Source: an uncultured Methanosarcinales archaeon (GTDB lineage Archaea; Nanobdellota; Nanobdellia; Woesearchaeales; CAYZNE01). From it: a DNA stretch of 24,825 nucleotides. Location: positions 1-24,825 of the forward strand of contig CAYZNE010000002.1 of the NCBI GenBank assembly GCA_964478955.1, given 5' to 3'. Below are positions 1,612 through 21,495 of this stretch, in pieces. The notes beneath the pieces were generated by a model. The model did no database searches. It was not told where the DNA came from and saw only the letters and a program-made list of their open reading frames with translations. Position 1 is the stretch's first letter. Each line of letters starts with the position of its first letter. The position numbers and the translations under genes were made by a program.

Positions 1612-1628
1612 CACTCCAAAATGAATTC
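1612..1628 (-). repeat. Degenerate direct copy of the tRNA-Glu(CUC) 3' end
   Basis: Minus strand GAATTCATTTTGGAGTG versus tRNA end GAATCCCGTTTGGAGCA (12/17 identical), directly after hairpin copy 1. Confidence 0.55.
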
Positions 1629-1654
1629 GTACTCAACAGTAAACTGTTGGCACC
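1629..1654 (-). repeat. Bulged-A hairpin element, copy 1
   Basis: Minus strand GGTGC CAACAG TTTA CTGTTG A GTAC. Confidence 0.8.
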
Positions 1655-1689
1655 AAAGGAACTTTGTTTGAATCCCAAAGGATTGTTAA

Positions 1690-1764
1690 TGCTCCAAACG
1701 GGATTCGAACCCGTGTCCTCGGCGCGAGAGGCCGAGATGATTGGCCGGACTACACTATTGGAGC
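1690..1764 (-). tRNA. tRNA-Glu(CUC)
   Basis: Acceptor GCTCCAA/TTGGAGC, anticodon arm TCGGC-CTCTCGC-GCCGA, T-arm ACGGG-TTCGAAT-CCCGT, discriminator A; CCA not encoded. Confidence 0.96.
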
Positions 1765-1772
1765 AAATAGAA

Positions 1773-4256
1773 TTAATCATTATTAACAACTTTTGCAATA
1801 CTTGTTACTTTATCGCCAGCCTTAAGTTTCATAATTCTTAGACCCTGGGTGTTTCTTCCTATAACTGAGATTTGTGAAGCTTGTGTTCTTATTACTTGCC
1901 CTTGTTTGCTCATAATGATTATTTCATTCTGATCATAAACTTGTCTTATTTCTACAACTTTTCCATTTCTTGGACTGCAGATAATATTTCTAACTCCTTT
2001 TCCACCTCTTCTTATGAGTCTATATTCAGGAATACTTGTTCTTTTACCATAACCGTTTTCAGTAATTGTTAGGATTGTAGCATCATCTTTTGCAACAACT
2101 GCACCTATAACTTTATCTTTAACTAATGTTATTGCTCTTACTCCTCTGGCACTTCTTCCTATTGGTCGAGCATCTTTTTCATTAAATCTTACTGCTTGAC
2201 CATTCTTTGTTGCAATCATTATATTTTCTGAGCCTGATGTTTTCAGAACTTTAACTAATTCATCTTCTTGATCTAAACTGATTGCAATAATTCCTCCATT
2301 TCTTGGTCGGCTATAGAGTTTTAATTCTGTTTTTTTAATTATTCCTTTTTCTGTGACCATTGCAAGGTATTCTGATTTACTAAAATCTTTTATTGGGATA
2401 ACTGCACTAATAGAGTCTTCTTGTTTTAGGTTAAGTAAATTTATTATTGCTTTACCTTTGCTTTGTCGTGAAGCTTCAGGTATTTTATATACTTTTAGCC
2501 AATGAACTTTTCCTTTATTTGTGAAACAGAGTAAGTAAGATTTTGTATTTGCAATAAATATATCTTCAATAAAATCTTCTTCTTTTGTTTGCATACCAAT
2601 AACTCCCTTTCCTCCTCTATTTTGGATTTTGTAGTTTTTTATTGGCATTCTTTTTATGTAACCTGAATTTGTTATCATTATTACTTGATCTTCTTCTTCA
2701 ATCATATCTTCAATGTCAACTTCTTCTTCCTGATCTGAAATCTCTGTTCTTCTTTCATCACTGAACTTTTCTATTAATTCTTTTGATTCTTTCTTTATTA
2801 TTTTCTTAATTTCGTTTTCATCAGATAAAATTATTTTTAGTTTTTCTATTAGTGACAGTGCATCTTTTAGATCTGTTTTTATTTTGTTTTGTTCTAAACC
2901 AGTTAGTTTTTGTAATTTTAAATCTAGAATTGCCTGTGCTTGTTTTTCACTTAAATCAAAATTTCTAATTAATCCTTCTCGTGCATCCTTTGCGGTTTTT
3001 GATGATTTAATTAATTTTACAACTGCATCAAGATTGTCTAGTGCAATAACTAGACCTTCTAATAAATGCGCTTTTTCTTCTGCTTTCCTTAGATCAAAAG
3101 TAGTTCTTTTTATTATTACTTCTTTTCTATGATCTATAAACACAGCTAGTGCATCTAGTAATGTTAGAGTTACAGGTTTTTTATCTAGTATTGCAAGAAG
3201 ATTAATACCAAAACTAACTTGTAATCTTGAATGTTTTAGAAGCTGTGCTTCAACAACTTCGTATGATGCATCTCTTTTTAATTCAATAACTACTCTGATA
3301 CCTGTTCTATCAGTTTCATCTCTTATGTCTGAGATGCCTTCAATGACTTTATCTTTAACCCCATTTGCAATTTGGGTTATCATTAATGCTTTGTTAACCA
3401 TGTAAGGTAGTTCTGTGATTATGATTGCGTTCTTATTTCTTACTGTTTCTTGATGGCATTTTCCTTTAATTCTAATAATCCCTCTGCCTTTTGCATAGGC
3501 TGATTGTATACCTGTTCTGCCAATTATTATTCCTCCAGTTGGAAAATCTGGCCCAGGAATGTATTCCATGACTTCAGCAACTGTAAGATCTGGATTATCG
3601 ATTTTTGCAATTATTGCAGAGCAAACTTCTTTTACATTATGGGGTGGAATATTTGTTGCCATTCCAACTGCAATTCCTGAGGAACCATTAACTAATAAGT
3701 TGGGTAGTTTTGCTGGAAGAACTTCAGGTTCTGTTAATGAACCATCAAAGTTCTCTACAAAAGAAACAGTTTCTTTGTTAATATCTTGAAGCAACTCTTC
3801 TGTAATTTTCATCATCTTTGCTTCAGTATATCTCATTGCTGCAGGGCTATCCCCATCTATACTTCCAAAGTTTCCTTGACCATTAACTAAAGGATATCTA
3901 AGAGAAAACTCTTGTGCCATTCTAACTAATGCATCATATACTGATTGATCTCCATGTGGATGATATTTACCAAGAACGTCTCCAACAATTCTTGCAGACT
4001 TTCTAAATTGCTTGTTGTACTGTAATCCAAGGTCATTCATTGCAAAAAGAATTCTTCTATGAACTGGTTTTAACCCATCTTTTGCATTGGGAAGTGCTCT
4101 GCCAATTATAACAGACATAGCATAATCTAAGTATGAAGTTTTCATTTCCTCATCAATTATTTGAGGAATTATTTTGTCATTAGTTTCTGCTAGATTTTCA
4201 TCATTTCTAACATTATTTTCTTCAATATTCTTAGGCATTTTATCGTCGTGCACCAT
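1773..4256 (-). CDS. gyrA: DNA gyrase subunit A
   Basis: [33 protein letters not shown], catalytic AAMRYTE, GyrA-box QNRGGKG, C-terminal pinwheel repeats (RNGG, RSARG, RRGGKG, RNTQG). Confidence 0.97.
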
Positions 4257-4337
4257 ACTAAAATAAGAAATAGTTTAGCTTTATAAGTGTTGTGTTTTTT
4301 ATGCTATTTTTACCCTTAAAAAGCCATTAAATTTACT

Positions 4338-7262
4338 CTATTCAATGGTAATATTAACAGGAGTTGGTCCTGCAGATAATACATTTCCATCCCAATTAAT
4401 TTTCCACACTATTATTCTTTGATTTGATGTTTGTGATCTAAGATCTGAGAACTTTTCAAAGTGGGTGGTATATTTACCATCAAAATAAAATAGTCTTGTG
4501 AAAATTGAAGTGCTTAATTCTTTAGAACTAACTACTGCACTATTGCCAATATTAAATATTGAAATATCAACACCACTTGCTGAAGAGTCATAAGTTTTTA
4601 ATTCGTTATTGATTTCAGTTGTAAATGATCTTATACTTACCTTATCTTCACCTACTTTTGTTGTTCCTTTATATATTCCTAATACCCCTTCGCCTTCTTC
4701 TGTAAGTTTATTAAATATATATTTTTCTATAACTAAATCTGCACCATTTTGTGAACCAATTTTTACATTAATATTACAATTAACTGTGTTATTGATGTTT
4801 AAACATGATCCTGTGCCAATATATCCTGGCCAACCACTTATCCAAGTGTTAGCTTCTTTTTCAGTTTGAAGCATATTTATTTCATCAAATAGAACTTCTA
4901 TTTCAGAATCTTCATAATTATGTATTTTTGCAAGATTTGTGAATGAAGAAAAGTCTTTACTTTTTCCATTATAATAAAGATCTGCTTTTTTGAAATCCCA
5001 TAATCCAAAGTGTGCCCAAACTCCTGATTTAGAAACCATATCCCCACTAGTTATATAGTATGCCTCTGGAGGATTGCAGTGTGTTTTTTGTAATATACTA
5101 TTTACTGAACTAGTTTGAAAACCTTTACTCAAGAGAATTTGTTTAGCATCTTCTTTGTTCTCTTGCACGATCTCGTCAAGAATAGCTACGCTTAGTGCAG
5201 GATTATTTAATTCATTATTTAATAATTCAAATGCGTCATTTGATCCACAATGAAGCATTCTAAGTATTCCAACTGTTAAATCTTCATTGCTTGTTACAAG
5301 TGATTTTCCAACCCAATGGGCCATTGGCGTATTCTGAGTTACACCATCAAATGTTACTGCTCTATCTGCAACAGCTTTAAACCAGTGGCCGAAATCCCAC
5401 CAAGAAGTGATTATCGCCTTCTGATCTGATTCTGCTCTTATTTTTGTTAAAGACTCATGCCATGCATCATTCATTTGTGGGATTTCATTTAGTGAAACTA
5501 TGTGTGCAGCACCAAAATAATTTACAAAAATTATTACAACTAAAATAAGAACAATAATTTTTGTTGCAATCTTTGGTATGTCAAATAGAACATGCAACCT
5601 TTTACTTAATTTAATAAATAGTATTCCTATTGTTAACCCAATCATTAATGAGAATGGATTAATCCCCAATAAAACAAATCTTATTCCTCTTACAGAGGCA
5701 AAAATAGTTCCAGCAAAAAGAGCACCTAATAGTGCAGGAAGTAATATACTTGCTCTCTCTTTTCTCTCTTGAAATAAATTAACAAGTATTCCTATTGCAA
5801 CTGTTAGTAAAATTAAGACTATGTAAAAGTTAGGACTTATTTTTGCAATAATAGATTTGCTTGTTAAGATTAAGTATAATATCGCTGATCCAATTAAATA
5901 AGTCCATGTTCTTTTATTGTATACTTTTATTAGTGATAATGGAATTGCGAGTAATGCAAGAAATATCATTGTTTGTCCTAGACTGCTTGAAGCTAGGGCC
6001 TTTGTTATTCCTGTTAGACTCTGTGTGTTTAACTCTGCAACTGTTGTATAAACATTAGGCCACAATGTCGAATGAACTGCATTCTGTAATCCTGCAGATC
6101 GCGTTACAGATGTTAGTGTAGAAATTACTACTTTGTAACTCATAAATATAATTGTTACTAATAAATAAACTGCAAATATTATTAGATTTGATCTAATAAT
6201 TCTTGAATGAAACAATTTGATATGTTTTTTCTTTGATTCTTTAGAATCTATTAGTATTTTTATTATTTGGTAAATTATCATTCCAATTAATACTGCAATT
6301 AAGATATCGAATGAGAAGTACCATCCTCCTCCCCAAGTTTTATAGAATATCCATGTTGCAACTCCTGCTAGCGCTGCAAATAAACCTTTTTTCTGATAGC
6401 TTCTTGCAGAAAACGCTTCTATAATAAACCAAAAGATGAACAAGGGCATTGTTATACCATATGCATCTGTATCTACAAATCCTGCAGGAGTTCTACCTAA
6501 TAAGTATGGGTGTATTCCTACAAGCATTGCTGCAACAAATCCACCTACAATTCCTGCATATTTTTTAATAATAAAAAATGCAGGTATAAGCCCTAATAAT
6601 ATGATTAGTGCAGGAATAAGATATATTGAGTTTAATAAGGGTGTTCCTGGTTTGAAAAAGTTAGAGATTTTATATGTCCAGAAAAGAATTAATGTGTGTC
6701 CATCAAGTGTCATTTCTCTTCCTTTTGGCGCAACTTCATGTGTGTTCCAGCATACGTCTTCTTTTATCTCATCGCAAACTGTTCCATCTTCAATTAAGTT
6801 TGTTGCTTTTAGAGAATAATAATAAGGATCAATTGCAAGCAGGTAAGTTTGATTATTTTCATCTTGAAAATCTTCCCTGTATTGTGCTGCCAAACTTTTT
6901 TGAGATGATTCTATATTATTTTTTTCTGTTTGATAAACTTCTGCAAATCGTTTATTTATGAGATCTTCTTTATTTACTTCTGGAAGGTTAGGATATTCTG
7001 AGTCTACTTGCGTTTTTATTTGTGATTTATAATAACTAATAACTGAGCTTTCTGCCCAGTCTTCTGTTTTAGGTAGTGTTTCAGTGTATGTTCTAAAGTA
7101 AATTGAACAAATCATTGTAACTAAAATTAAGAGTATTATAAGGGTAGTTTTGTTGAATATTTTTTTGTTAGAAAAAAAGTCTTTGGCCTTAATACCAAAT
7201 TCTTTTATATTAAGATTTGTTTCTATAGTATCTTCAGTATCATGTTTTTTGTCTTCATCCAT
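4338..7262 (-). CDS. aglB: Oligosaccharyltransferase AglB (STT3 family)
   Basis: DPYY, DTD, TVAEL, many TM helices, signature SWWDFGHW, downstream DMVSK (DK motif). Confidence 0.95.
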   Translation of the reverse strand: MDEDKKHDTEDTIETNLNIKEFGIKAKDFFSNKKIFNKTTLIILLILVTMICSIYFRTYTETLPKTEDWAESSVISYYKSQIKTQVDSEYPNLPEVNKEDLINKRFAEVYQTEKNNIESSQKSLAAQYREDFQDENNQTYLLAIDPYYYSLKATNLIEDGTVCDEIKEDVCWNTHEVAPKGREMTLDGHTLILFWTYKISNFFKPGTPLLNSIYLIPALIILLGLIPAFFIIKKYAGIVGGFVAAMLVGIHPYLLGRTPAGFVDTDAYGITMPLFIFWFIIEAFSARSYQKKGLFAALAGVATWIFYKTWGGGWYFSFDILIAVLIGMIIYQIIKILIDSKESKKKHIKLFHSRIIRSNLIIFAVYLLVTIIFMSYKVVISTLTSVTRSAGLQNAVHSTLWPNVYTTVAELNTQSLTGITKALASSSLGQTMIFLALLAIPLSLIKVYNKRTWTYLIGSAILYLILTSKSIIAKISPNFYIVLILLTVAIGILVNLFQERKERASILLPALLGALFAGTIFASVRGIRFVLLGINPFSLMIGLTIGILFIKLSKRLHVLFDIPKIATKIIVLILVVIIFVNYFGAAHIVSLNEIPQMNDAWHESLTKIRAESDQKAIITSWWDFGHWFKAVADRAVTFDGVTQNTPMAHWVGKSLVTSNEDLTVGILRMLHCGSNDAFELLNNELNNPALSVAILDEIVQENKEDAKQILLSKGFQTSSVNSILQKTHCNPPEAYYITSGDMVSKSGVWAHFGLWDFKKADLYYNGKSKDFSSFTNLAKIHNYEDSEIEVLFDEINMLQTEKEANTWISGWPGYIGTGSCLNINNTVNCNINVKIGSQNGADLVIEKYIFNKLTEEGEGVLGIYKGTTKVGEDKVSIRSFTTEINNELKTYDSSASGVDISIFNIGNSAVVSSKELSTSIFTRLFYFDGKYTTHFEKFSDLRSQTSNQRIIVWKINWDGNVLSAGPTPVNITIE

Positions 7263-7550
7263 TAAAATACCCCTTAGACCTGTTTATTAGTATTATTAGT
7301 ATTTGAAAATACTCTATTTTTTTATAAATGTTTCATTTATGTAGGTTGTATTTTAGTTGTTTTATAATAGGTATTTAAATGGATTTTCTTCAAATTCTGA
7401 TTTGTAGTCACTCTAAAATAGAAATATTTAAATATGATACTGAATACTTAGGTTTAAATAGTTAAATTTAGTAAATTTTCTGGAAAAAAGGGGCGGGATA
7501 GTAGTAAATAAATCATACTTATGATATATTTAACACTTGAGGGGATTCAA

Positions 7551-8768
7551 ATGAAAAAGATAAATAAAATAGGAATTTTAGCATTTTTGATAATTGCAAC
7601 TTTACTTCTTTCTGCTTGCAGTTTGACTTACGTACCTGATAATAAATCTGCATTTGATATGGATTCAGGATTGCTTGGTGATAGAAGTGAAATAATGTTT
7701 GATGATGATTCTGTGTTGGTTGATGATGATCGAGAATTAATAAATTATGCAGATGAAGAAATAAATGAATCAGATGTTGCTATGACTGTTTCTGCAGTTG
7801 AGGGAGATCTTATTGATCTTCAACCAAAAGCAGTTGATCCTGATGATGATTTAATTGAATATACTTTTACTAATCCATTTAATGAAGTTGGTTTATGGCA
7901 AACACAAGATGGAGATATTGGAAGGTATCTTATTACTATAAGTGCAACAGATGGTGATCTAGTAATAAAAGAATATGTTCTAGTAATTGTGTATCCTAGA
8001 AACAAAGCCCCTGTTGTTGAATGTCAAGAAGAAATGGTTGTTTTTGAAACTGATACAGTAAGTTTAAATTGTAATTTCTATGATTTAGAAAATGATATCT
8101 TTTCATTATCTTACTCTGGTTGGATGACTTCTGATGAATATACTACAACTTATGATGATGCAGGTGAATACACTGTTATTGTATCTGCAGAAGATAGTGA
8201 GAATAATACTATTCAAAAAGAAGTAAAAATTATTGTGAAAAATAAAAACAGACTTCCTATCTTAAGTGGTGTTGAAGATATCTATGCAATGGAAACAGAG
8301 ATTATTGTTCTAAGTGTAGGTGCTGTGGATGCAGATAGTGATAATTTTATTATGAGTTTTGGAGCACCATTTGATGAAGATGGTGTTTGGGTTACTGCAG
8401 ATGGAGATAATGGTGATTATGTATCTTATGTTCAAGTAACTGATGGAACAGATACTGTAACAGAAAGTTTTAATATTTATGTTGAACACATAAATACAAT
8501 ACCCCATCTTGCACCAATTGAAGACATTGAAGTAACTGAAGGAGATGTTGTTCTAATAGAAACTACTATTAGTGATGCTGAAGATGATGAACTAACTGTA
8601 ACATTTTCTGGTTGGATGACTTCTGAAGTATATGCAACTACTTATGATGATGCTGGAGAACACTATGTTAAAGTCACTGTTAGTGATGGTCAACTGGAGA
8701 TTTCACAAAATGTGAAAGTAACTGTTAGTAATTTAAATAGACCTCCTGTGTTTATTGTTCCAGGATAA
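7551..8768 (+). CDS. Secreted acidic lipoprotein with tandem Ig/cadherin-like domains
   Basis: Likely start ATG 7551 after GAGGGG. Basic N-terminus, hydrophobic core, lipobox-like LLLSAC. Repeated DxDxD turns and NxxP domain starts; internal duplication SGWMTSDEYTTTYDDAGEY / SGWMTSEVYATTYDDAGEH. Confidence 0.8.
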   Translation: MKKINKIGILAFLIIATLLLSACSLTYVPDNKSAFDMDSGLLGDRSEIMFDDDSVLVDDDRELINYADEEINESDVAMTVSAVEGDLIDLQPKAVDPDDDLIEYTFTNPFNEVGLWQTQDGDIGRYLITISATDGDLVIKEYVLVIVYPRNKAPVVECQEEMVVFETDTVSLNCNFYDLENDIFSLSYSGWMTSDEYTTTYDDAGEYTVIVSAEDSENNTIQKEVKIIVKNKNRLPILSGVEDIYAMETEIIVLSVGAVDADSDNFIMSFGAPFDEDGVWVTADGDNGDYVSYVQVTDGTDTVTESFNIYVEHINTIPHLAPIEDIEVTEGDVVLIETTISDAEDDELTVTFSGWMTSEVYATTYDDAGEHYVKVTVSDGQLEISQNVKVTVSNLNRPPVFIVPG

Positions 8769-8779
8769 TTCCGGTTAAC

Positions 8780-8808
8780 GGTGCCAATAACTAATAGTTA
8801 TTGAGTAT
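8780..8808 (+). repeat. Bulged-A hairpin element, copy 2 (followed by T tract; may also act as terminator)
   Basis: GGTGC CAATAACTA A TAGTTATTG A GTAT, starting 12 nt after the 8768 stop. Confidence 0.8.
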
Positions 8809-8826
8809 TTTTTTATTTGATTAAAC

Positions 8827-8854
8827 ATGCCAATAACTAAATGTTATTGAGCAT
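8827..8854 (+). repeat. Bulged-A hairpin element, copy 3
   Basis: ATGC CAATAAC TAAAT GTTATTG A GCAT, followed by a T tract. Confidence 0.8.
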
Positions 8855-8879
8855 TTTTTTAAAACATAAAGGTGAAAAC

Positions 8880-9275
8880 ATGAACAGAAAAACAAGTTTG
8901 TTAATAATATTATTATTAATAATAATACTTTTAGGAATACTTAATTTGATGTGGCTTACAGATATAAAAGATTTTGATTCTGAGTTTAATAGAGAATCTT
9001 CTGTTCCTAAGTTATCAAATCAAGTTGTAAGAACAGTTTATATGACTCAACATCAAGATAGACTTTACCCTGAAACAATTACTGCAAATAAAGGTGAGTT
9101 TTTAATACTTAGTTTTGCAGATAAGAATGCAACAACTTTAGAAATACCAGGTTATGATTTTACTCAGACAGTTAAACTTTATAATTTTGAACTATTTTTA
9201 GCTAATAAAGGAACATTTGAGATATATTGTCATAATTGTCCTGATAAATCTCCTGCAGTCTTGATTGTTGAATAA
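8880..9275 (+). CDS. Membrane-anchored cupredoxin-like domain protein
   Basis: Start ATG 8880 after GGTGA (the track start at 8841 lies inside hairpin copy 3). One N-terminal TM helix; PETITANKGE and GTFEIYCHNC resemble Cupredoxin_1 strands and the C-terminal Cys/His loop. Confidence 0.65.
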   Translation: MNRKTSLLIILLLIIILLGILNLMWLTDIKDFDSEFNRESSVPKLSNQVVRTVYMTQHQDRLYPETITANKGEFLILSFADKNATTLEIPGYDFTQTVKLYNFELFLANKGTFEIYCHNCPDKSPAVLIVE

Positions 9276-9286
9276 CCTGGTTAAAC

Positions 9287-9319
9287 GGTGCCAATAAAGT
9301 TTTTATCTTTATTGAGCAT
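9287..9319 (+). repeat. Bulged-A hairpin element, copy 4
   Basis: GGTGC CAATAAAG TTTTTAT CTTTATTG A GCAT, starting 12 nt after the 9275 stop. Confidence 0.8.
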
Positions 9320-9333
9320 TATTTTTTTATTTT

Positions 9334-9389
9334 TTGCAAGAAAGTTTACGAATACTTTAACTTTTAAGTTAAAGATGCGTTTCTTGCAA
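9334..9389. repeat. Nested inverted repeat / long imperfect hairpin
   Basis: TTGCAAGAAA...TTTCTTGCAA (10 bp) enclosing CTTTAACT-TTTA-AGTTAAAG (8 bp). Confidence 0.65.
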
Positions 9390-9435
9390 GTTCAAAAGTT
9401 TGGTTTTCAAATTTTTGTTATTTTCTTCTTTTCTT

Positions 9436-9452
9436 AAAGAAATCTTTATAAA
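9436..9452 (+). promoter_or_regulatory. BRE/TATA promoter of tRNA-Ile(UAU)
   Basis: AAAGAAATC followed by TTTATAAA ending 28 nt upstream of the tRNA. Confidence 0.6.
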
Positions 9453-9479
9453 TAGTTTATTTCTTCTTAACTTATAGAA

Positions 9480-9589
9480 GAGTCCGTAGCTTAGTCCGGT
9501 GGAGCGCTGGTCTTATATGGCCAAATCTCGTTTTAGAGGTTTTGTTCTAAGCTAGCCAGTGGTCGGGGGTTCAAATCCCCTCGGACTCA
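9480..9589 (+). tRNA. tRNA-Ile(UAU) with 36-nt intron (9518-9553) at canonical 37/38
   Basis: Acceptor GAGTCCG/CGGACTC; anticodon stem CTGGT/GCCAG; spliced loop CT-TAT-AA. BHB motif: central helix CTTA/TAAG with two 3-nt bulges (TAT, CTA). Body almost identical to tRNA-Ile(GAU) at 11949. Confidence 0.92.
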
Positions 9590-9717
9590 TTTTTTTTAAT
9601 GAGTTTGTTTTTGGGGTTTGAACTTGTTCCTTTGGTGCAGGAAATCTTTATTTTCCGCACAAATCCCCTCGGACTCATTTTTTTTAATGAGTTTGTTTTT
9701 GGGGTTTGAACTTGTTC
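9572..9717 (+). repeat. Perfect 58-bp direct repeat x2 (9572-9629, 9660-9717) starting in the tRNA T-loop
   Basis: CAAATCCCCTCGGACTCA-T8-AATGAGTTTGTTTTTGGGGTTTGAACTTGTTC occurs twice, period 88. Confidence 0.93.
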
Positions 9718-9734
9718 TGTAGAGTTTTGCTCGA

Positions 9735-9793
9735 GGCACCAAAAATTTTTGATTTTTGAGGGCTTATGGCACCAACAGCAAGCTGTTGAGTAC
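9735..9793 (+). repeat. Bulged-A hairpin element, copies 5 and 6 in tandem
   Basis: GGCAC CAAAAAT TTTTG ATTTTTG A GGGC (9735-9763) and GGCAC CAACAG CAAG CTGTTG A GTAC (9768-9793). Confidence 0.75.
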
Positions 9794-9795
9794 AT

Positions 9796-9811
9796 AATCC
9801 CCTCGGACTCA
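9796..9811 (+). repeat. Third copy of the tRNA-Ile 3' end (att-like)
   Basis: AATCCCCTCGGACTCA, identical to 9574-9589. Confidence 0.9.
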
Positions 9812-9890
9812 CTTCCTTTTCTCAGGCATTTGAAAATAAGATATTTAATCAGAAAATATTATATAGTAAGACTTCTCAGTTAAGTAGTAT

Positions 9891-10688
9891 ATGAAGAATA
9901 AAGAGATATTCAATTGGCTAGTAAGAGAACATGTTGGTAGAGATTGGATGAATGTAAGACCCTATGTTAGAGAAGGAGTTTTAGGCTCAATGAAAGTTGT
10001 CCCTGGAAATACAGAAAATCCTTATTATGGGGGAATTTTAATTTTTGCAAAAGGAAAAAGGTTTGCAGCCAATCTTAAAAAGATGAATATTGTACTTGTA
10101 GGGAAAATGAATGTTTCTTATAATATTTCTACATTTGATAGATTTAGCAGATACTGCAAGAAGTTTCGTGTTGAAGACGGTGCAACCGTTATAGATAAAA
10201 ACAATGCTTTTGCATACTATATTTCTGTGTTTAATAATAATCCTCAGATATTCTGGACATTTAAAGAAAGGTGGGATTTTGCATTTAAAGGAATATACAA
10301 AATTTACAAGATTGGAAAGATGCTTCCATCTGATTTCAAAGACCATAAAGGACTAAATAAAGTTGGCGAATCAATGGATTTGATAGGAAATAAAACTTAT
10401 GTTGCCATTGTTCTCCCTCAAGCTTATCCAAGGGTTCATACATTTCAAATAAAAAGAACTGCATACACTCCTCTTGGAATGGGTAAAGTAACTCATTTCG
10501 ATAGTGAAGGATTGTTAGAAGAATTTTATCTTGTGTACATGCCTAGTTACAAAGGAGAATTTCTAGACGCAAAACACAAAGTTGTTGGCATCTACAGGTA
10601 TTATGATAGAAGTAGAGGAGTAAAAAAGATATTCCGAAGAGAATTGATTATTGGGTGCAGTGATTTGAAACAGATTGGGATGAATTAA
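9891..10688 (+). CDS. Hypothetical protein, possible divergent DAC (DisA_N-like) fold
   Basis: GGILIF strand, EDGATVID (DGA motif), LIGNKTYVAI where DAC enzymes have LGxRHxAA. Overlaps tatD by 4 bp, convergent. Confidence 0.5.
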   Translation: MKNKEIFNWLVREHVGRDWMNVRPYVREGVLGSMKVVPGNTENPYYGGILIFAKGKRFAANLKKMNIVLVGKMNVSYNISTFDRFSRYCKKFRVEDGATVIDKNNAFAYYISVFNNNPQIFWTFKERWDFAFKGIYKIYKIGKMLPSDFKDHKGLNKVGESMDLIGNKTYVAIVLPQAYPRVHTFQIKRTAYTPLGMGKVTHFDSEGLLEEFYLVYMPSYKGEFLDAKHKVVGIYRYYDRSRGVKKIFRRELIIGCSDLKQIGMN

Positions 10689-11461
10689 AGAAACAATCTT
10701 TGGTAATTGAGATAAATGTTATTTGCAACTTCTTCTTCATCTAATTGCTTTAGCTCTGCAATCTTTTTAATGACAACAATTACATTGCTAGAATCATTTA
10801 TCTGACCTTTTGATGGTGCAAGAAATGGTGCATCTGTTTCTGTAAATAATTTGTTTAAGGGTGTGCTTTTTATTATGCTATGAAAATGCAATGCCCTTTC
10901 AACATTAGTTGGAATAGAGAAATACCATCCATTGTTAATTATCCTTTGAATAAATTTTTTCTTTCCTGAAAAGCAGTGCATAATAACTTTCTTAGCTTTC
11001 ATTTCTTCTAATGCAATTATTGTGTCTTCTTCTGCCTTCCTTGAATGCACAATAATTGGAATATCTTTATCAATACTTATCTGTATTAATTTTTTAAAAT
11101 ATTTTATCATTCTTTGCTTTGTTTCATCTGAGAAAAATACTTTATGCTCATGGCCTTTTCCTTGAAAATAATCAAGACCAACTTCACCTATTGCAATACA
11201 CTTATTATTTCTAATAAACTCAAGTTCTTTTTCTAATTGCTCATCAGTATACTCTGCAATATGTGTAGGATAAAATCCTAATGCAGGTTTAACAATATTA
11301 TACTTTTTAGCTAATTCTAAAACATTCCTATTGCTTTCAGGCTCTGTTCCTTGGGTTATGATTACTTTAACACCAGCATTCCTGCATTTAGAAATAACTT
11401 CATCAATTCTCTCAATTAAGCCCTTATAGCTTAAATGGGCATGCACATCAATTAATTCCAT
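10685..11461 (-). CDS. tatD: TatD-family nuclease
   Basis: IDVHAH, GFYP, IGEVGLD, IVHSR, MHCF, TETDAP. Confidence 0.95.
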   Translation of the reverse strand: MELIDVHAHLSYKGLIERIDEVISKCRNAGVKVIITQGTEPESNRNVLELAKKYNIVKPALGFYPTHIAEYTDEQLEKELEFIRNNKCIAIGEVGLDYFQGKGHEHKVFFSDETKQRMIKYFKKLIQISIDKDIPIIVHSRKAEEDTIIALEEMKAKKVIMHCFSGKKKFIQRIINNGWYFSIPTNVERALHFHSIIKSTPLNKLFTETDAPFLAPSKGQINDSSNVIVVIKKIAELKQLDEEEVANNIYLNYQRLFL

Positions 11462-11548
11462 AATAGTGCATTAAATAGAATGTGTTTATTAAGTTTGTGT
11501 AGAATATAAGAATCAAAATAAGAATAAATTAAAATAATAGAATTAGGA

Positions 11549-11650
11549 TTATTTCTTTAATCTTTTACGTTTTTCTTTCTTCATTCTTTTACGTTGCCAC
11601 TTCCAACGCATTTGACCTTTCTTTTTCCAACGTCTTGAACTTCTCTTCAA
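11549..11650 (-). CDS. rpl41e: Ribosomal protein eL41 / eS32 (archaeal), 33 aa, not in the ORF track
   Basis: TTG start after GGTGA; translation MKRSSRRWKKKGQMRWKWQRKRMKKEKRKRLKK matches the archaeal L41e pattern as I recall it. Confidence 0.88.
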   Translation of the reverse strand: MKRSSRRWKKKGQMRWKWQRKRMKKEKRKRLKK

Positions 11651-11718
11651 TTTATCACCAAATTATCATATATTTTTCTTCTTGCTCTCCTAACGGAAAC
11701 CTCATATAATTTTAAATA

Positions 11719-11733
11719 TGCTCCAAATGGGAT
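11719..11733 (-). repeat. Direct copy of the tRNA-Glu 3' end
   Basis: Minus strand ATCCCATTTGGAGCA versus ATCCCGTTCGGAGCA (Glu-UUC) and ATCCCGTTTGGAGCA (Glu-CUC). Confidence 0.8.
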
Positions 11734-11752
11734 CCGTAGCAATTTCTTGCGA

Positions 11753-11782
11753 GGTGTCCAATAACCGTAGGTTATTGAGTAT
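11753..11782 (+). repeat. Bulged-A hairpin element, copy 7 (antisense to the adjacent tRNA)
   Basis: GGTGTC CAATAACC GTA GGTTATTG A GTAT. Confidence 0.75.
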
Positions 11783-11783
11783 C

Positions 11784-11802
11784 TTCGAATCTCGTTGGAA
11801 TA
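11784..11802 (+). repeat. Inverted degenerate copy of the tRNA-Glu(UUC) 3' end
   Basis: Plus strand TTCGAATCTCGTT-GGAATA versus tRNA TTCGAATCCCGTTCGGAGCA. Confidence 0.7.
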
Positions 11803-11806
11803 TAAA

Positions 11807-11881
11807 TGCTCCGAACGGGATTCGAACCCGTGTCCTCGGATCGAAAATCCGAGATGATTGACCGGACTACACCATCGGAGC
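11807..11881 (-). tRNA. tRNA-Glu(UUC)
   Basis: Acceptor GCTCCGA/TCGGAGC, anticodon arm TCGGA-TTTTCGA-TCCGA, T-loop TTCGAAT; CCA not encoded. Confidence 0.96.
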
Positions 11882-11948
11882 AAACTCTCGTAACTAATTG
11901 GATTAAACTTCTATTTAAAAGCTTTTTGAAATTAGTAGAATTATAGAA

Positions 11949-12022
11949 TGAGTCCGAGGGGATTTGAACCCCCGACCACTCGATTATCAGTCGAGCACTC
12001 CACCGGACTAAGCTACGGACTC
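11949..12022 (-). tRNA. tRNA-Ile(GAU)
   Basis: Acceptor GAGTCCG/CGGACTC, anticodon arm CTCGA-CTGATAA-TCGAG, T-loop TTCAAAT. Confidence 0.96.
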
Positions 12023-12023
12023 A

Positions 12024-12099
12024 TGGCGCCTCTGGTCAGAATCGAACTGACGACCTGTCGGTTAACAGCCGACCGCTCCAGCCGCTAAGCTACAGAGGC
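12024..12099 (-). tRNA. tRNA-Asn(GUU), CCA encoded
   Basis: Acceptor GCCTCTG/CAGAGGC, anticodon arm GTCGG-CTGTTAA-CCGAC, ends G-CCA. Confidence 0.96.
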
Positions 12100-12147: not shown

Positions 12148-14211
12148 TTATTCAAAAACACTACTTATAATTTCTTCAGCATTAAACTTCTTTAAATCTT
12201 TATATTCTTGCCCTGTTGTTATGAATAATATTGGTTTTTCAGTAACATGACTTATTGAGATTGCTGCACCACCTTTCTCATCAATGTCTGCTTTTGTTAG
12301 AATGATTCCATCAATACCAACTGATTTATTGAATTCTTTTGCCTGTTCAACACAATCATTACCAGTAATACTTTCCCCAATAAAGATTTTCATATTTGGA
12401 TTTACTACTCTAATAACTTTTTCAAGCTCTTGCATTAAATTAGAGTTGCTATGTAATCTTCCGGCAGTATCTATCAAAACCACATCTACTGATTTTGATT
12501 TTGCATGTTCTATTGTATCATATGCGACTGCAGCAGGGTCTGCACCATAGTCATGCTTGATTAACTTAGTATTAAGATTGTTTGTGTGTTCTTCTATTTG
12601 TTGGATTGCTGCAGCTCTAAATGTGTCTGATGCTGCAACCACGCATGTTAAGTTATTGTCTTGGAAATATTTTATTAATTTTCCAATTGTTGTTGTTTTC
12701 CCTGAGCCATTAACCCCAAGCATTAATATTTTGTAAGGCTTTTCTGAAGTTTTTATTTTTTCAATTAAGTCTATTGGTTCATAACCAAACAGAGACTCTA
12801 TTGTTTGTCTTAAATTGTTCAGGATTATTTCATCTATAGATCTTCTTGTTACCTTTGTGTTCTCTAGTTCTTCTTTAAGATTGAATTTTATTTTTTCAAT
12901 AACTTCTACTGCAACATTATTTTCTAGAAGTGCAACTTCAAGGTCCCAGAATAATTCATCAAATTTCTCATCTGTAATATTTAATTTTATTATCTTTTCT
13001 GACAGTTTTTTGAAGATTCCCTTTTTCTTTTGTGTTGGATCAACAAGTTTTTCTTTTTTATCTTCCTTTGCTTCTTTAACATGAACTTCTTCTTGTATGT
13101 GGGGTTTTTCAAGAGCAGGAAAGTCTTCTTTTTTTAGTAAATCTTTTTTCTTTTCAATGTGTTTTTCTACTTTCTGAGTTATTTTGTATTCCCAACCTGG
13201 TTGCCATGCTTTTCTTAATCTCCAATCTTCTGCTAGTGCTTGTGTCCAAGTTTTATTATTTAGAAGAACTTCTATTGCTAGTTGAGAATATCTGTGTGCG
13301 GCAATAGCTATGTGTTTTCCTTTGTATTTTTTATATAAGTCATTAAGAAATTTTCTTATTCTTGCAGTTACCTCGTTGTAACTTTCGCCTTTTGGATAAT
13401 TTTCATATATAGGATTATGATCTTTTTTGAATTCATTAAGTTTTGACTTATGTTGACCATTTAGTTTTCCATAATCACATTCTCTTAATCTTTTATCAAC
13501 AATTGTTTCTTTATCTGGCCAAGTTATATTTGCAGAATCAATTGCTCTTTTTAGATCTGAAGTGAATATTTTATCAAAATCATATTTTGTTTGATTAATT
13601 AATTCTTCAGATTGAGTTATTCCTAGTGCAGATAGTTCTGTTGAGTTTTGCCCCGTACATACACCTGCTTCATTATCTTTTGTTGTTCCGTGAACAAAAT
13701 AAGTTATATGCACTTCGTTTTCTGGAACTTGTTTTTTAATTTTAGTTGTTTCTTTAATTTCTTCAATTATGGGTTTTGGAGCTTCTTCAATAACTTCTTC
13801 CTTTGACTTTTCCTTTGGCTCTTCAATAACTGGTTCTTCTTTAATCTCTTCAACCTTTTCCTCTACTTCTGGTTCGGGAACAGGAACTTCTTCAACAATT
13901 TTTTTTATTATTTCCTTTGGCTCTTCAATCACGGGTTTTTCTTCAACCTTCTCTTCTTTAACTGCATCTTCAGCGTTAATCTTTGCTTGCTCTTCTGCAA
14001 TCTCTTCCTCAATAGATTTAATTTCTTCTGGTTGTTCCTCTTTTTTCTTTTTAGAAAATACTTTTTTGAAAAACCCCTTTTTCTCTTTTTCCAATTCTTG
14101 TTTTTCTTCTTCACTAATTTGATCTTCAGAAATAGTTTTAGCGTCTTCTACTATTTCCTCAGCTATTTTTTCTGAGGTTTCTTTTATTTTCTTTTTTAGG
14201 AAGCCAAACAT
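12148..14211 (-). CDS. ftsY: SRP receptor FtsY with acidic N-terminal region containing an inserted histidine-phosphatase domain
   Basis: C-terminal NG GTPase: GVNGSGKTT, DTFRAAA, DTAGR, TKAD, GGA. Residues ~167-344 carry FVHGTT, TSDLKRA, RLRECDYG, PKGES, IAAH. Confidence 0.93.
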   Translation of the reverse strand: MFGFLKKKIKETSEKIAEEIVEDAKTISEDQISEEEKQELEKEKKGFFKKVFSKKKKEEQPEEIKSIEEEIAEEQAKINAEDAVKEEKVEEKPVIEEPKEIIKKIVEEVPVPEPEVEEKVEEIKEEPVIEEPKEKSKEEVIEEAPKPIIEEIKETTKIKKQVPENEVHITYFVHGTTKDNEAGVCTGQNSTELSALGITQSEELINQTKYDFDKIFTSDLKRAIDSANITWPDKETIVDKRLRECDYGKLNGQHKSKLNEFKKDHNPIYENYPKGESYNEVTARIRKFLNDLYKKYKGKHIAIAAHRYSQLAIEVLLNNKTWTQALAEDWRLRKAWQPGWEYKITQKVEKHIEKKKDLLKKEDFPALEKPHIQEEVHVKEAKEDKKEKLVDPTQKKKGIFKKLSEKIIKLNITDEKFDELFWDLEVALLENNVAVEVIEKIKFNLKEELENTKVTRRSIDEIILNNLRQTIESLFGYEPIDLIEKIKTSEKPYKILMLGVNGSGKTTTIGKLIKYFQDNNLTCVVAASDTFRAAAIQQIEEHTNNLNTKLIKHDYGADPAAVAYDTIEHAKSKSVDVVLIDTAGRLHSNSNLMQELEKVIRVVNPNMKIFIGESITGNDCVEQAKEFNKSVGIDGIILTKADIDEKGGAAISISHVTEKPILFITTGQEYKDLKKFNAEEIISSVFE

Positions 14212-17210: not shown

Positions 17211-17339
17211 TTTTTGTTTTCACCTTGAATTAATGTTTAAATTAAACACTTTTTTTAAGATAGTATGAGTCTAAGATTTTCTTTTGTTTGAAATAAATAC
17301 CCAATAATTAAATTTATTGGTACCGATAAAAAATCGGAA

Positions 17340-17978
17340 TTAATAAATTCCTGTGTTGATCTTTCCAGATTCAACAAATTTAAATCCATCTTTATTTAGG
17401 ATTGCAATATCATAACCATTGCCAGACATTGTGTCTCTTTTCAAAGAAGAGTTTATTGCTTTTTTTACTAATACAATTCCTTCTTTTTGAGTCATTCCTT
17501 CTTTAAATTCATTTTCTAGAACTCCAATTGCGTAAACACTTCCTGATCCTGAAGACACAAAAGTTTTTACTTTTGTAACTGACCCATCAGGATATAAATC
17601 ATATAATAAAAGTTTACTGTCTTGTCCTGCAAGTAAGAAATGTGCAATTCCCTGTATCATAGAAGGAGTTCTTATAGAATTATATAACATTCCTGCAAGC
17701 ATGTTTGCTGCTTCTTTAACAGTTGTATTTCTGTTTGTTTGATTTTCTTTTAGAGCTAATTGTGCCCTAATAACTTTAATTAATAGTTGAGCTTCGCTAA
17801 CAGTTCCTGCCATTGTTAGTGCAAATCTGTCATTGATTTTTATAACTTTTTTAATATCTCCACTTGTAACCATATAGCCTGCTGTAACTCTTTTATCTGC
17901 AGCAAGAATTATGCAATCTTTACACACAACTCCCATAGTTGTTGTTCCAGTACTTAATGTATTTTCATCCTTATTCAT
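17340..17978 (-). CDS. psmB: 20S proteasome beta subunit
   Basis: 11-aa propeptide then G/TTT catalytic Thr, AADKRVT, AGTVSEAQ, SGSGS, KRDTMSG. Confidence 0.96.
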   Translation of the reverse strand: MNKDENTLSTGTTTMGVVCKDCIILAADKRVTAGYMVTSGDIKKVIKINDRFALTMAGTVSEAQLLIKVIRAQLALKENQTNRNTTVKEAANMLAGMLYNSIRTPSMIQGIAHFLLAGQDSKLLLYDLYPDGSVTKVKTFVSSGSGSVYAIGVLENEFKEGMTQKEGIVLVKKAINSSLKRDTMSGNGYDIAILNKDGFKFVESGKINTGIY

Positions 17979-21223: not shown

Positions 21224-21495
21224 GTAGGTAAGTAGCTAACTTTCGCTCTTAGAGTGAGGAAAGTCTGCCCACCATAAAAGGTCAGCACATATGTGTGTCT
21301 TGAAAAGGACGGCAACCACTCAGAAACGGTACCTCTTGAGTGCAGAATGATGGATTAAATCCTGACATTGCTTAAGGATGGTTGAAACGGTGAGCCCTGA
21401 CTGGTGCAAGTTGTATAACGCTTAGTAGAATGTTAGCAAAGTTCATCCAAGCTTTGGCTTTGGGACTTACAGAAGGTAGCTTATCGCTTGCCTAC
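21224..21495 (+). ncRNA. rnpB: RNase P RNA (archaeal, short)
   Basis: P1 GTAGGTAAG/CTTGCCTAC, GAGGAAAGTC, AGAAAC, TGAAAC, GGTGCAAG, TAGAATG, ACAGAAGGTAGCTTA; P4 CTGCC/GGTAG; TATA-like TTTAAAAA about 22 nt upstream. Confidence 0.93.

Follow-up and report, generated by a model that had tools for sequence, protein, structure and literature searches.

The stretch of DNA described here (24,825 nucleotides of contig CAYZNE010000002.1; hereafter the window) has a G+C content of 30%, and three of its tRNA genes, Glu(CUC), Ile(UAU) and Glu(UUC), are each followed by a short composite sequence that we call a trailer. Each trailer contains an inverted copy of the 3' part of its own tRNA, one or more hairpins, including a shared element that we call M, and a direct copy of the tRNA 3' end. 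The trailers (A, B and C) are repeat cassettes at the DNA level and are restricted to one genus-level clade of AT-rich, Nanoarchaeota/Woesearchaeota-like DPANN archaea. The names attached to the homologues of the window's TatD protein (Woesearchaeota or Nanobdellota) and to those of the IS200-type transposase discussed below (Nanoarchaeota) indicate that the host is a DPANN archaeon. The initial annotation of this DNA had described the make-up of the three trailers correctly, as shuffles, folds and relatives all show, but the coordinates that it gave for the tRNA genes are those of the trailers; the genes themselves lie directly 5' of them. The features of the three loci are as follows.

1690-1764, minus strand: tRNA-Glu(CUC), intact, the anchor of trailer A
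1612-1689, minus strand: trailer A
1666-1686, minus strand: proximal arm of trailer A, an inverted copy of the tRNA 3' part with its core GGGATTCAAAC at 1666-1676 and a decayed, T-rich outer part
1625-1662, minus strand: hairpin M of trailer A in sense orientation, GTTCC-TTT-GGTGCC-AACAG/CTGTT-G-A-GTAC (covariance model 37.4 bits, E=3e-7)
1612-1628, minus strand: distal arm of trailer A, GAATTCATTTTGGAGTG, a degenerate direct copy (12/17) of tRNA positions 57-73
9480-9589, plus strand: tRNA-Ile(UAU) with a 36-nt intron, the anchor of trailer B
9590-9811, plus strand: trailer B
9590-9677, plus strand: unit B1 (88 bp), with T8, an inverted copy (9600-9623), GTTCCTTTGGTGC (9626-9638), a hairpin (9634-9660) and a direct copy (9661-9677)
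9678-9811, plus strand: unit B2 (134 bp), with T8, an inverted copy (9688-9711) and a direct copy (9796-9811)
9718-9736, plus strand: small GTAG..CGAGG hairpin of unit B2
9737-9763, plus strand: degenerate M of unit B2
9763-9798, plus strand: M of unit B2
11807-11881, minus strand: tRNA-Glu(UUC), intact, the anchor of trailer C
11719-11806, minus strand: trailer C
11783-11803, minus strand: proximal arm of trailer C, an inverted copy of the tRNA 3' end, ATATTCCAACGAGATTCGAAG (14/21, P=0.009)
11748-11786, plus strand: M of trailer C, on the strand opposite to the tRNA, GGTGTCCAATAACC..GGTTATTGAGTATC (covariance model 41.1 bits)
11734-11752, minus strand: small hairpin of trailer C, TCGCAAGAAATTGCTACGG, the reverse of the GTAG..CGAGG module in unit B2
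11719-11733, minus strand: distal arm of trailer C, the direct copy ATCCCATTTGGAGCA

All of the anchor tRNAs are complete and high-scoring without the trailer, which lies 3' of position 73, and this rules out a T-loop intron, a bulge-helix-bulge motif or a split or permuted tRNA. The tRNA-Ile(UAU) gene was missed by ARAGORN in its default run and was detected by Rfam and by the intron mode; an isoleucine isoacceptor with a UAU anticodon is rare in archaea, where a modified CAU anticodon is usual. Only tRNAs and the RNase P RNA reached the gathering score in the Rfam scan, and trailer B gave nothing credible at E<=10. Two neighbouring tRNA genes carry no trailer in the window:

11949-12022, minus strand: tRNA-Ile(GAU)
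12024-12099, minus strand: tRNA-Asn, which has no room for a trailer because the next tRNA gene follows directly on its 3' side

When the last 17 nt of each tRNA (R57 to 73) were tested against shuffled sequences, direct copies were detected at 1612-1628 in trailer A (12/17, P=0.011), at 9661-9677 and 9796-9811 in trailer B (17/17 and 16/16, P<0.0005) and at 11719-11735 in trailer C (14/17, P<0.0005); the control, tRNA-Ile(GAU), gave no direct copy in the same test. Every direct copy starts within the T-loop, at positions 56/57 to 59/60, as had been noticed initially. The distal copy of trailer C retains a TTTGG state that is still present in the live tRNA of two relatives (L011 and L093; relatives and further contigs are designated by L and a number), and the AT-rich sequence beyond the distal arm of trailer A resembles, by eye only, the flank of the unoccupied site in L012. 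Among the inverted copies, aligned without gaps, only that of trailer C is significant alone, those of A and B being convincing only when gapped or as folds. When the sequence between G53 and the distal copy is folded as a single strand, a long helix of tRNA end and inverted copy forms together with the hairpin, with z-scores of -4.6 to -5.2 (-2.3 for trailer A). The motifs shared between trailers also exceed shuffles: GGYRCCAA...TTGAGTAY has 5 matches against 0.36 expected, and TTCCTTTGGTGC is exact at both 1650-1661 and 9627-9638.

Syntenic loci of relatives, obtained via GyrA and TatD homologues (TatD identity 71-89%), carry trailers at Glu(CUC) in L011 and L093, at Glu(UUC) in L011, L091, L093 and L095, at Ile(UAU) in L011, L095, L096, L098 and L110, and at Ile(GAU) in L093, L095, L096 and L110. 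The initial statement that Asn(GUU) and Ile(GAU) have no trailer is therefore true of the window and, for Ile(GAU), untrue of the last four relatives. The metagenome collection was also scanned for the conserved core pattern CTGCACCANAGGAACN{2,5}GTTCRA; each AT-rich match was a unit no more than 130 nt downstream of a tRNA gene, and the scan added Phe (L109/L123), Lys (L114/L124) and Ser (L116/L118), with a second Ser in L124. Across relatives and co-occurring contigs, units of about 85-135 bp are found at eight tRNA genes (Glu and Ile twice each, Phe, Lys and Ser twice), and at all eight the common core GGATTYGAAC-nnn-GTTCC-TnT-GGTGC-hairpin-GYAY stands beside a copy of the local 3' end. In each case the inverted and the direct copies both match the local tRNA, and the inverted arms open with the complement of that tRNA's discriminator and acceptor strand, which reads TGAGT.. 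in Ile, TGG..C.T in Phe and CTCCAA in Glu. The observation that the copies follow the identity of the local tRNA and the hairpin is common to the loci, first made in the window, extends to eight tRNA genes in relatives and co-occurring contigs. Three of the scan contigs come from the same metagenomes as the window strain; in these and the window, units occur at 7/8 of the tRNA genes that have no other tRNA gene within about 70 nt on the 3' side.

The number of units is variable. The strain variant L005 lacks exactly the 88-bp unit B1; Ile(UAU) has two units in L096, three in L095 and four in L110, with the same TatD in all three; and in L098 it has three full units and a truncated fourth. Empty alleles, which the initial annotation had suggested looking for, do exist: Glu(CUC) has none of the units in L012 and L095, both Glu genes none in L098, Glu(UUC) none in L128, Ile(UAU) none in L093 and both Ile genes none in L091. 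In an alignment, the distal copy of Glu(UUC) runs straight into the flank seen at the empty site. Moreover, one and the same tRNA may bear different unit types, Glu(CUC) having a unit with M in sense orientation in the window and one with a reversed core in L011 and L093. An artefact of assembly is ruled out, since the window sequence was recovered independently in several ENA and JGI metagenome assemblies, the trailer regions A, B and C are byte-identical across 4-10 independent assemblies, and the variants in unit number are discrete. Nevertheless, a run of N in L011 (2462-~2570), an assembly gap that falls inside the tandem array behind tRNA-Glu(UUC), indicates that such arrays break short-read assemblies. 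Two apparent distant copies of tRNA 3' ends, at L093 13900 and L095 7441, are chance matches in a ribosome-binding site and in coding DNA; of the distant copies, only that at L116 2628-2665 is genuine.

The direct repeats measure 11 bp (L129), 15-17 bp, about 28 bp (L124) or 58 bp (B1/B2), a span that excludes a target duplication of fixed length. This bears directly on the idea of a casposon- or DDE-type MITE (a miniature transposable element with inverted repeats) that inserts at the tRNA 3' end with a fixed target-site duplication and adds tandem copies at the tRNA-proximal repeat. The repeats of 15-17 bp do correspond to the tRNA 3' end, and the tandem arrays beside the tRNA resemble casposon arrays (PMC4779613, PMC5137440), but the repeat length is not fixed, the arms copy each local tRNA and are not element-borne terminal inverted repeats, no Cas1 was found in the scanned open reading frames (ORFs) and neither Cas1 nor PolB was seen. 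We regard this explanation as very improbable indeed.

The hairpin element M consists of TTCC, a linker, GGTGCC, a variable stem-loop with a bulged A, and then GAGCAY. In an alignment of 16 copies 98.3% of the cells are paired and 22 cells are compensatory, with both sides changed; the covariation is higher than in all 500 shuffles, and pairing falls to 24-44% when the partners are slid. The bulged A is conserved, and the outermost pair is G.U in 9/16 copies, which argues that one particular strand of M folds. The covariance model (R1), searched over 264 kb of lineage DNA with a cut-off of E<1e-3, matched 29 copies of M, about 12 of them linked to tRNA genes and about 17 solo. The initial view of the hairpin holds in that it is shared between the trailers, but needs correcting in that the hairpin of trailer C is on the opposite strand and in that M is not confined to the trailers. 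Nearly all of the solo copies are in sense orientation, 5-60 nt beyond a stop codon, and have a T-run behind them; at these gene 3' ends they are probably terminators or 3'-end hairpins. Those of the window are:

8775-8812 and 8821-8858, plus strand: two tandem solo M, each with T7 behind it, immediately 3' of the stop codon that ends the ORF at 7521-8768, with no tRNA
9282-9323, plus strand: solo M with a T-run, after the stop codon of the ORF at 8880-9275
17293-17329, minus strand: solo M, 3' of the stop codon in the gene for a proteasome subunit (17340-17978)

An ORF listed at 8841-9275 begins within the second of these hairpins; its likely start is the ATG at 8880, preceded by AAAGGTGA.

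M is a genome-wide mobile palindromic element and is not specific to tRNA genes; its mobility is apparent from orthologous gene ends that vary in M and from copies that lie in frame within the ftsY gene of L129. The sites orthologous to the solo pair at 8775-8858 are empty in L091, L095 and L098, and the ends of the proteasome and PKD genes have M in the window, L091 and L093 and none in L095 and L098. The ftsY gene of L129 has two copies of M (3993-4031 and 4176-4214), antisense, in frame and 183 nt apart, in its low-complexity N-terminal region. M is thus a dispersed, extragenic, imperfect palindrome of conserved sequence, as are the repetitive extragenic palindromes (REPs). The solo copies have in common TTCC(GG), 3-11 nt and GGTGCC. 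In one filled/empty pair M follows TTCC, the empty L095 having TAATTCC/AACATT and the filled L091 TAATTCC/TTTGGTGCC...GAGCAT/ (slashes mark the junctions). From the shared TTCC and this pair, the GTTCC of the tRNA-linked copies would be the left junction of M. TTC(C) precedes M at the T-loop copies and at the solo sites alike, with a single filled/empty pair and few clean empty sites, and in the trailers M is placed within the loop of the palindrome, as X'GGGATTT-(GAAC nnn G/M/)-RAATCCC-X. A resemblance of GTTCCTTTGGTGCAG to the 5' end of tRNA-Glu (11/15) was rejected as a copy; it is within chance and is contradicted by the identical motif at solo M.

A fold that is strand-specific, has G.U pairs and covaries is also what one would expect of an RNA module, in which the antisense copy, pairing now with the tRNA and now with the downstream copy, is a processing switch, or the trailer provides a minihelix mimicking the top half of a tRNA or a hairpin with a guide RNA of 16-17 nt. 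Indeed, X' and X can form a helix like that of acceptor and T-stem, the succession of hairpin, about 17 nt and T-run resembles scaffold and guide, and a high share of the tRNA genes have a unit. However, T8 or other T-runs and terminator-like hairpins separate the tRNA from the module, and co-transcription of the downstream module is unlikely because T8 follows tRNA-Ile and the proximal, inverted arm has decayed into T-runs. Furthermore, the core is found both ways round, the units vary in number and are dispensable, many orthologous tRNAs have none, and no Rfam family matches. The T-run after the copy is duplicated tRNA flank that is missing in several units, and no TnpB was seen, which speaks against an analogy with the omega-RNA of TnpB. 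The switch or tRNA-mimic decoy that the initial annotation had offered therefore seems improbable, given the T-runs ahead of the module, its two orientations, its dispensability and the silence of Rfam, and we extend this judgement to the RNA module as a whole.

The two types of unit are a single cassette that lies either way round. In the form called type C the bottom strand, X'GGGAT-CC-GTAG..CGAGG-TGTCC..GAGCAT-C-TTYGAATCCC-X, aligns with the top strand of unit B2 and of L095 Glu(UUC), ..GAAC-gaa-GTTCC-GTAG..CGAGG-TGTC..GAGCAC-GAATCCC-X; the small GTAG..CGAGG hairpin is an extra of some units. In both forms the tRNA-proximal arm is the inverted copy, decayed and T-rich, and the far arm is a well-kept direct copy, and because this arrangement is the same in both, the core must flip or insert either way between the arms. 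In several relatives the inverted copies are unambiguous, with palindrome z-scores of 5-10 (Glu(CUC) of L011 and L093, Ile of L095, Phe of L109, Ser of L116), and the helix there extends from the T-loop, by way of the acceptor strand and a hairpin in the flank, as far as the inverted copy. Since the proximal arm often takes in about 15-20 nt of the tRNA 3' flank, the arrangement amounts to a direct-inverted-direct triplication of the DNA from G53 to about +20. Alignments of the helix between tRNA and inverted copy show that the inverted arm has drifted almost wholly towards T, and the junctions have 3-4 nt of microhomology (GTTC/GYAC).

These results modify the other proposal made initially, a micro-element that targets tRNA genes: the gain, loss, duplication and flipping of units between close relatives and strains and the occurrence of one core behind eight tRNA genes agree with it, but the hairpin is no tRNA-specific cargo, the inverted "self-copy" is part of a fold-back that includes the 3' flank, and the direct repeats vary from 11 to 58 bp. 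The same geometry could also arise with no dedicated enzyme at all, by template switching or slippage at the quasi-palindromic T-arm and terminator hairpins, with events of the kind seen in microhomology-mediated break-induced replication (MMBIR) copying M from other loci via GTTC/TTCC microhomology. A double template switch classically yields a direct-inverted-direct order that turns around at hairpins, slippage is expected to give tandem arrays and the precise loss of units, and the variable direct repeats and the microhomology at the junctions fit as well. It is more difficult to explain in this way why the junction details are identical at eight different tRNA genes, why units were gained independently at one tRNA in different relatives, and why 7/8 of the eligible tRNA genes have units and ordinary hairpin-rich intergenic regions have none; M, moreover, is conserved in sequence besides structure and enters coding DNA. 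An origin without an enzyme is unlikely, if still a serious candidate.

Two further kinds of rearrangement involve tRNA genes. In L116 (1885-2665) a NUDIX hydrolase gene (2127-2585, minus strand) is part of a cassette of about 750 bp, which has a decayed reversed-core unit on one side and, beyond the gene, a fourth, degenerate copy of the tRNA-Ser 3' end and flank (2628-2665); the position of the gene between the unit and a further tRNA-Ser copy suggests that larger inserts use the same tRNA site. The segment from tRNA-Ile(UAU) to tRNA-Ile(GAU) (window 9480-12022), which holds ORF265, TatD and tRNA-Glu(UUC), is inverted in L091 (9446-12180), L095 (9095-12618) and L096 when compared with the window, L011 and L093. 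The 3' halves of tRNA-Ile(GAU) and tRNA-Ile(UAU) form a perfect inverted repeat, identical over 34 nt, and the breakpoints of the inversion accordingly lie within the two tRNA-Ile genes.

With respect to a possible enzyme, no integrase or transposase is encoded among the window genes, and Phage_integrase had no match in the scanned ORFs or Pfam lists of about 300 kb of lineage DNA (contigs). ORF265 (window 9891-10688), a protein of 265 aa encoded beside the tRNA-Ile trailer and conserved in all syntenic relatives, was considered as a hidden recombinase and rejected, having no similarity in Pfam, NCBIfam or PDB. A viral or plasmid donor was likewise rejected, as scans of viral contigs with the module pattern gave only chance matches in unrelated high-GC or coding DNA. 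Of the enzymes that the initial annotation had thought might co-occur, then, the tyrosine integrase was not found in this DNA, and an HUH transposase of the IS200 type is present in the lineage, but with ends that differ from M. Contig Ga0207996_1000158 (60 kb), which has the Lys and Phe trailers, encodes this Y1/HUH transposase of 154 aa (L123 2761-3225; PF01797, E=6.4e-23), with the motifs HVH (HUH) and YILNQ (YxxxQ). The IS200-type element is about 0.75 kb long and multi-copy, with four sites (L123 2600-3420, L130, L131 and L132), a transposase of 142-154 aa and hundreds of homologues, mostly on contigs of less than 2 kb. Its end hairpins are GCACACTTTTAGTGTGC and CCSCAWCCTTTAGGTTGSGG (GCACAC..GTGTGC; CCSCAWCC..GGTTGSGG), and its left flanks end in TTTTC, TATCC and TTTTC, with about 2 nt of uncertainty in the boundary. 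The presence of this multi-copy element shows that single-strand hairpin transposition operates in the lineage.

Alternatively, the trailers could be scars or miniature derivatives of elements with T-loop tyrosine integrases, either attL/attR pairs that have lost their cargo or something like cis-mobilizable elements (CIMEs), mobilised in trans. The sites of T-loop-class integrases, as Williams is said to have described in 2002, reportedly begin within the T-loop and reach to or past the end of the tRNA, and the direct copies do the same; they form a direct repeat over the tRNA 3' part with the intact tRNA at one end, the intact gene being proximal and the degenerate copies tending to be distal. 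The NUDIX cassette of L116, situated between mini-units and a degenerate tRNA-Ser copy, and the inversion between the tRNA-Ile genes, comparable to those of Thermococcales (PMC5495485), would also be in keeping. The lack of an integrase gene in the DNA examined and of the modules in any viral contig scanned speak against it, as do the size of the units, a double-stranded circle of 85-135 bp being too small to bend for recombination, and the need to re-tailor an element-borne 3' end for eight tRNAs. The inverted arm with its host flank is left unexplained, and the known archaeal cases have repeats of about 44 bp and cargos of 9-23 kb (bioRxiv 10.1101/2022.07.05.498093). All told, we find this origin decidedly unlikely.

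The account that we tentatively prefer is an insertion of M after TTC(C) at the DNA level, with a fold-back and duplication of the tRNA 3' part, followed by unequal recombination and flipping. The architecture, its recurrence at eight tRNAs, its variability, the mobility and constraint of M, the two orientations and the fold-back geometry are all observed; the steps that would connect them are as follows. M would enter 3' of TTC(C) as a folded hairpin of single-stranded DNA, the invariant TTC of the T-loop being such a site, with the help of a hairpin-recognising enzyme, perhaps an IS200-type Y1/HUH transposase or else a recombinase similar to Xer or that of integrons. An insertion into an essential tRNA gene would be kept only where the 3' part was re-created upstream of M, and this could be achieved by template switching or by synthesis on a fold-back, turning around at the hairpin of the flank and at GAAC-nnn-G, which would leave the direct-inverted-direct order. 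Unequal recombination between direct copies would then lengthen and shorten the arrays, giving the differences in copy number that are observed, and recombination between the inverted arms could flip the core into the two orientations that are found. Finally, the proximal arm would decay to T-runs, probably as the transcription terminator of the tRNA.

Several points weigh against this account. No integrase or transposase gene was found adjoining any trailer. The end hairpins of the IS200-type element are unlike M, its target is only roughly TYC given the 2-nt uncertainty of the boundary, and no autonomous element with M-like ends was found; neither this enzyme nor any other is tied to M. The fold-back rescue is a construction that fits the geometry and was not seen happening. 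The polarity of insertion is not proven, because empty sites could be secondary losses between direct repeats, and the point of insertion (TTC or TTCC) depends on few filled/empty pairs. Lastly, the solo copies, mostly in sense and with a T-run, would fit equally a host terminator hairpin that has spread by other means.

One may go further and suppose that the clade has a recombination system for hairpin (single-stranded) DNA that docks at the universal T-loop of tRNAs, its arrays growing at the tRNA-proximal end like an integron and sometimes carrying genes (NUDIX, L116), with the tRNA 3' end regenerated by fold-back at each insertion. This is a speculation that we consider rather doubtful, and we know of no transposon or integrase family described with such a mode of insertion.

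The remainder of the window is largely housekeeping in nature, with genes for gyrA, STT3/AglB, TatD, ftsY, prefoldin, eIF6, FttA/aCPSF1, a proteasome subunit, AspRS and HerA, and one further RNA gene:

21224-21495: archaeal RNase P RNA (Rfam RF00373, 143 bits)

The gyrA gene (1773-4256) encodes 827 aa in the window and 1258 aa in the closest relative (L091/L092; L091 1-3592), where it is interrupted by an intein with a LAGLIDADG endonuclease. Outside the clade the closest matches of GyrA have 49-55% identity and are nearly all bacterial, which suggests that the gyrase was acquired. FtsY of the window (12148-14211) has 687 aa and a histidine-phosphatase domain (His_Phos_1) at residues 174-307, whereas its relatives have 464-524 aa and no such domain. 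Between trailer A and the BatA/VWA genes there are a gene for an AAA_33/zeta-toxin-like kinase (1045-1557) and one for a CMAS-type methyltransferase (40-1005), both absent from L093 (19772-19928) and L011. They were considered as cargo of trailer A and rejected, as there is no further tRNA copy beyond them.

Genes for tRNAs are classic landing pads, only for kilobase-sized elements with an integrase of their own. In the present case the T-loops of many different tRNA genes are associated with a very small palindromic element, which leaves the same footprint at each, a backward and a forward copy of the local 3' end. If driven by an enzyme, this would be a new way to target and repair an essential gene during insertion, and it would extend a biology like that of IS200 or of REPs and their REP-associated tyrosine transposases (RAYTs) to the DPANN archaea, about whose mobile DNA almost nothing is known. 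In practical terms, the partial tRNA copies can mislead the annotation of tRNAs and break assemblies (the gap in L011; many short contigs), and the trailers mark hot spots of inversion and strain variation that should be useful for population studies of uncultured archaea.

Among known systems, REPs, with the bacterial interspersed mosaic elements (BIMEs) and RAYTs that go with them, and the Rickettsia palindromic elements (RPEs) are much like M: short imperfect palindromes with conserved flanks and a bulged base, situated at gene 3' ends, tandem in places, lying either way round, and differing in presence from one close relative to another. Like RPEs, M occurs in frame inside a protein gene (one was found, ftsY of L129), and as with RAYTs there is a Y1 transposase in the lineage. 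Here, however, the host is an archaeon, and the Y1 gene is that of an IS200 present in several copies, the end hairpins of which differ from M, and is not a single-copy RAYT flanked by M. To our knowledge, no REP has an inverted copy of a tRNA 3' end on one side and a direct copy on the other. The IS200/IS605 family and the palindrome-associated transposable elements (PATEs) share with M an apparent insertion 3' of a short motif (for M, TTC/TTCC) with no fixed duplication, a hairpin seemingly recognised on one strand (G.U being tolerated), a right end that abuts the remainder of the target and a Y1 (TnpA) enzyme in the lineage. The difference is that M is one hairpin and not a matched pair of left and right ends, and we know of no fold-back of the target site in this family.

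Elements with T-loop tyrosine integrases likewise have duplications that start in the T-loop, a functional tRNA that is kept and displaced copies that decay, and one insert with a gene is known among the trailers (L116); they differ in carrying kilobases where the trailers have 60-120 bp, and the trailers have no integrase found with them, an inverted target copy and one core for eight tRNAs. In archaea, partial tRNA copies as repeats of about 44 bp flank elements of 9-23 kb (bioRxiv 10.1101/2022.07.05.498093), and integrases drive inversions in Thermococcales (PMC5495485). Casposon arrays are also found at the 3' end of archaeal tRNA genes, separated by copies of the tRNA end (PMC4779613, PMC5137440), but the trailers have no fixed target-site duplication, terminal inverted repeats or Cas1/PolB, and their units are about 100-fold smaller.

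Integration at a folded site, as in attP of CTXphi with XerCD and in attC of integrons, also yields a direct-inverted-direct sequence like the target, in arrays that grow at the anchored end and with hairpins that have extrahelical bases and variable centres. The arms of the trailers, by comparison, cannot simply be carried by the element, because they match each local tRNA. By eye only, GAAC..GTTC resembles the AAC/GTT boxes of attC, the trailer junctions falling after GTTC(C) and not G, and most of the trailer cassettes, in contrast to those of integrons, have no gene. A limited search of the literature yielded no account of units that combine this geometry with a length of about 90 bp. In their parts, nonetheless, the trailers are akin to known kinds of mobile DNA, resembling on the one hand REP- and MITE-like elements and on the other tRNA-targeted integration.

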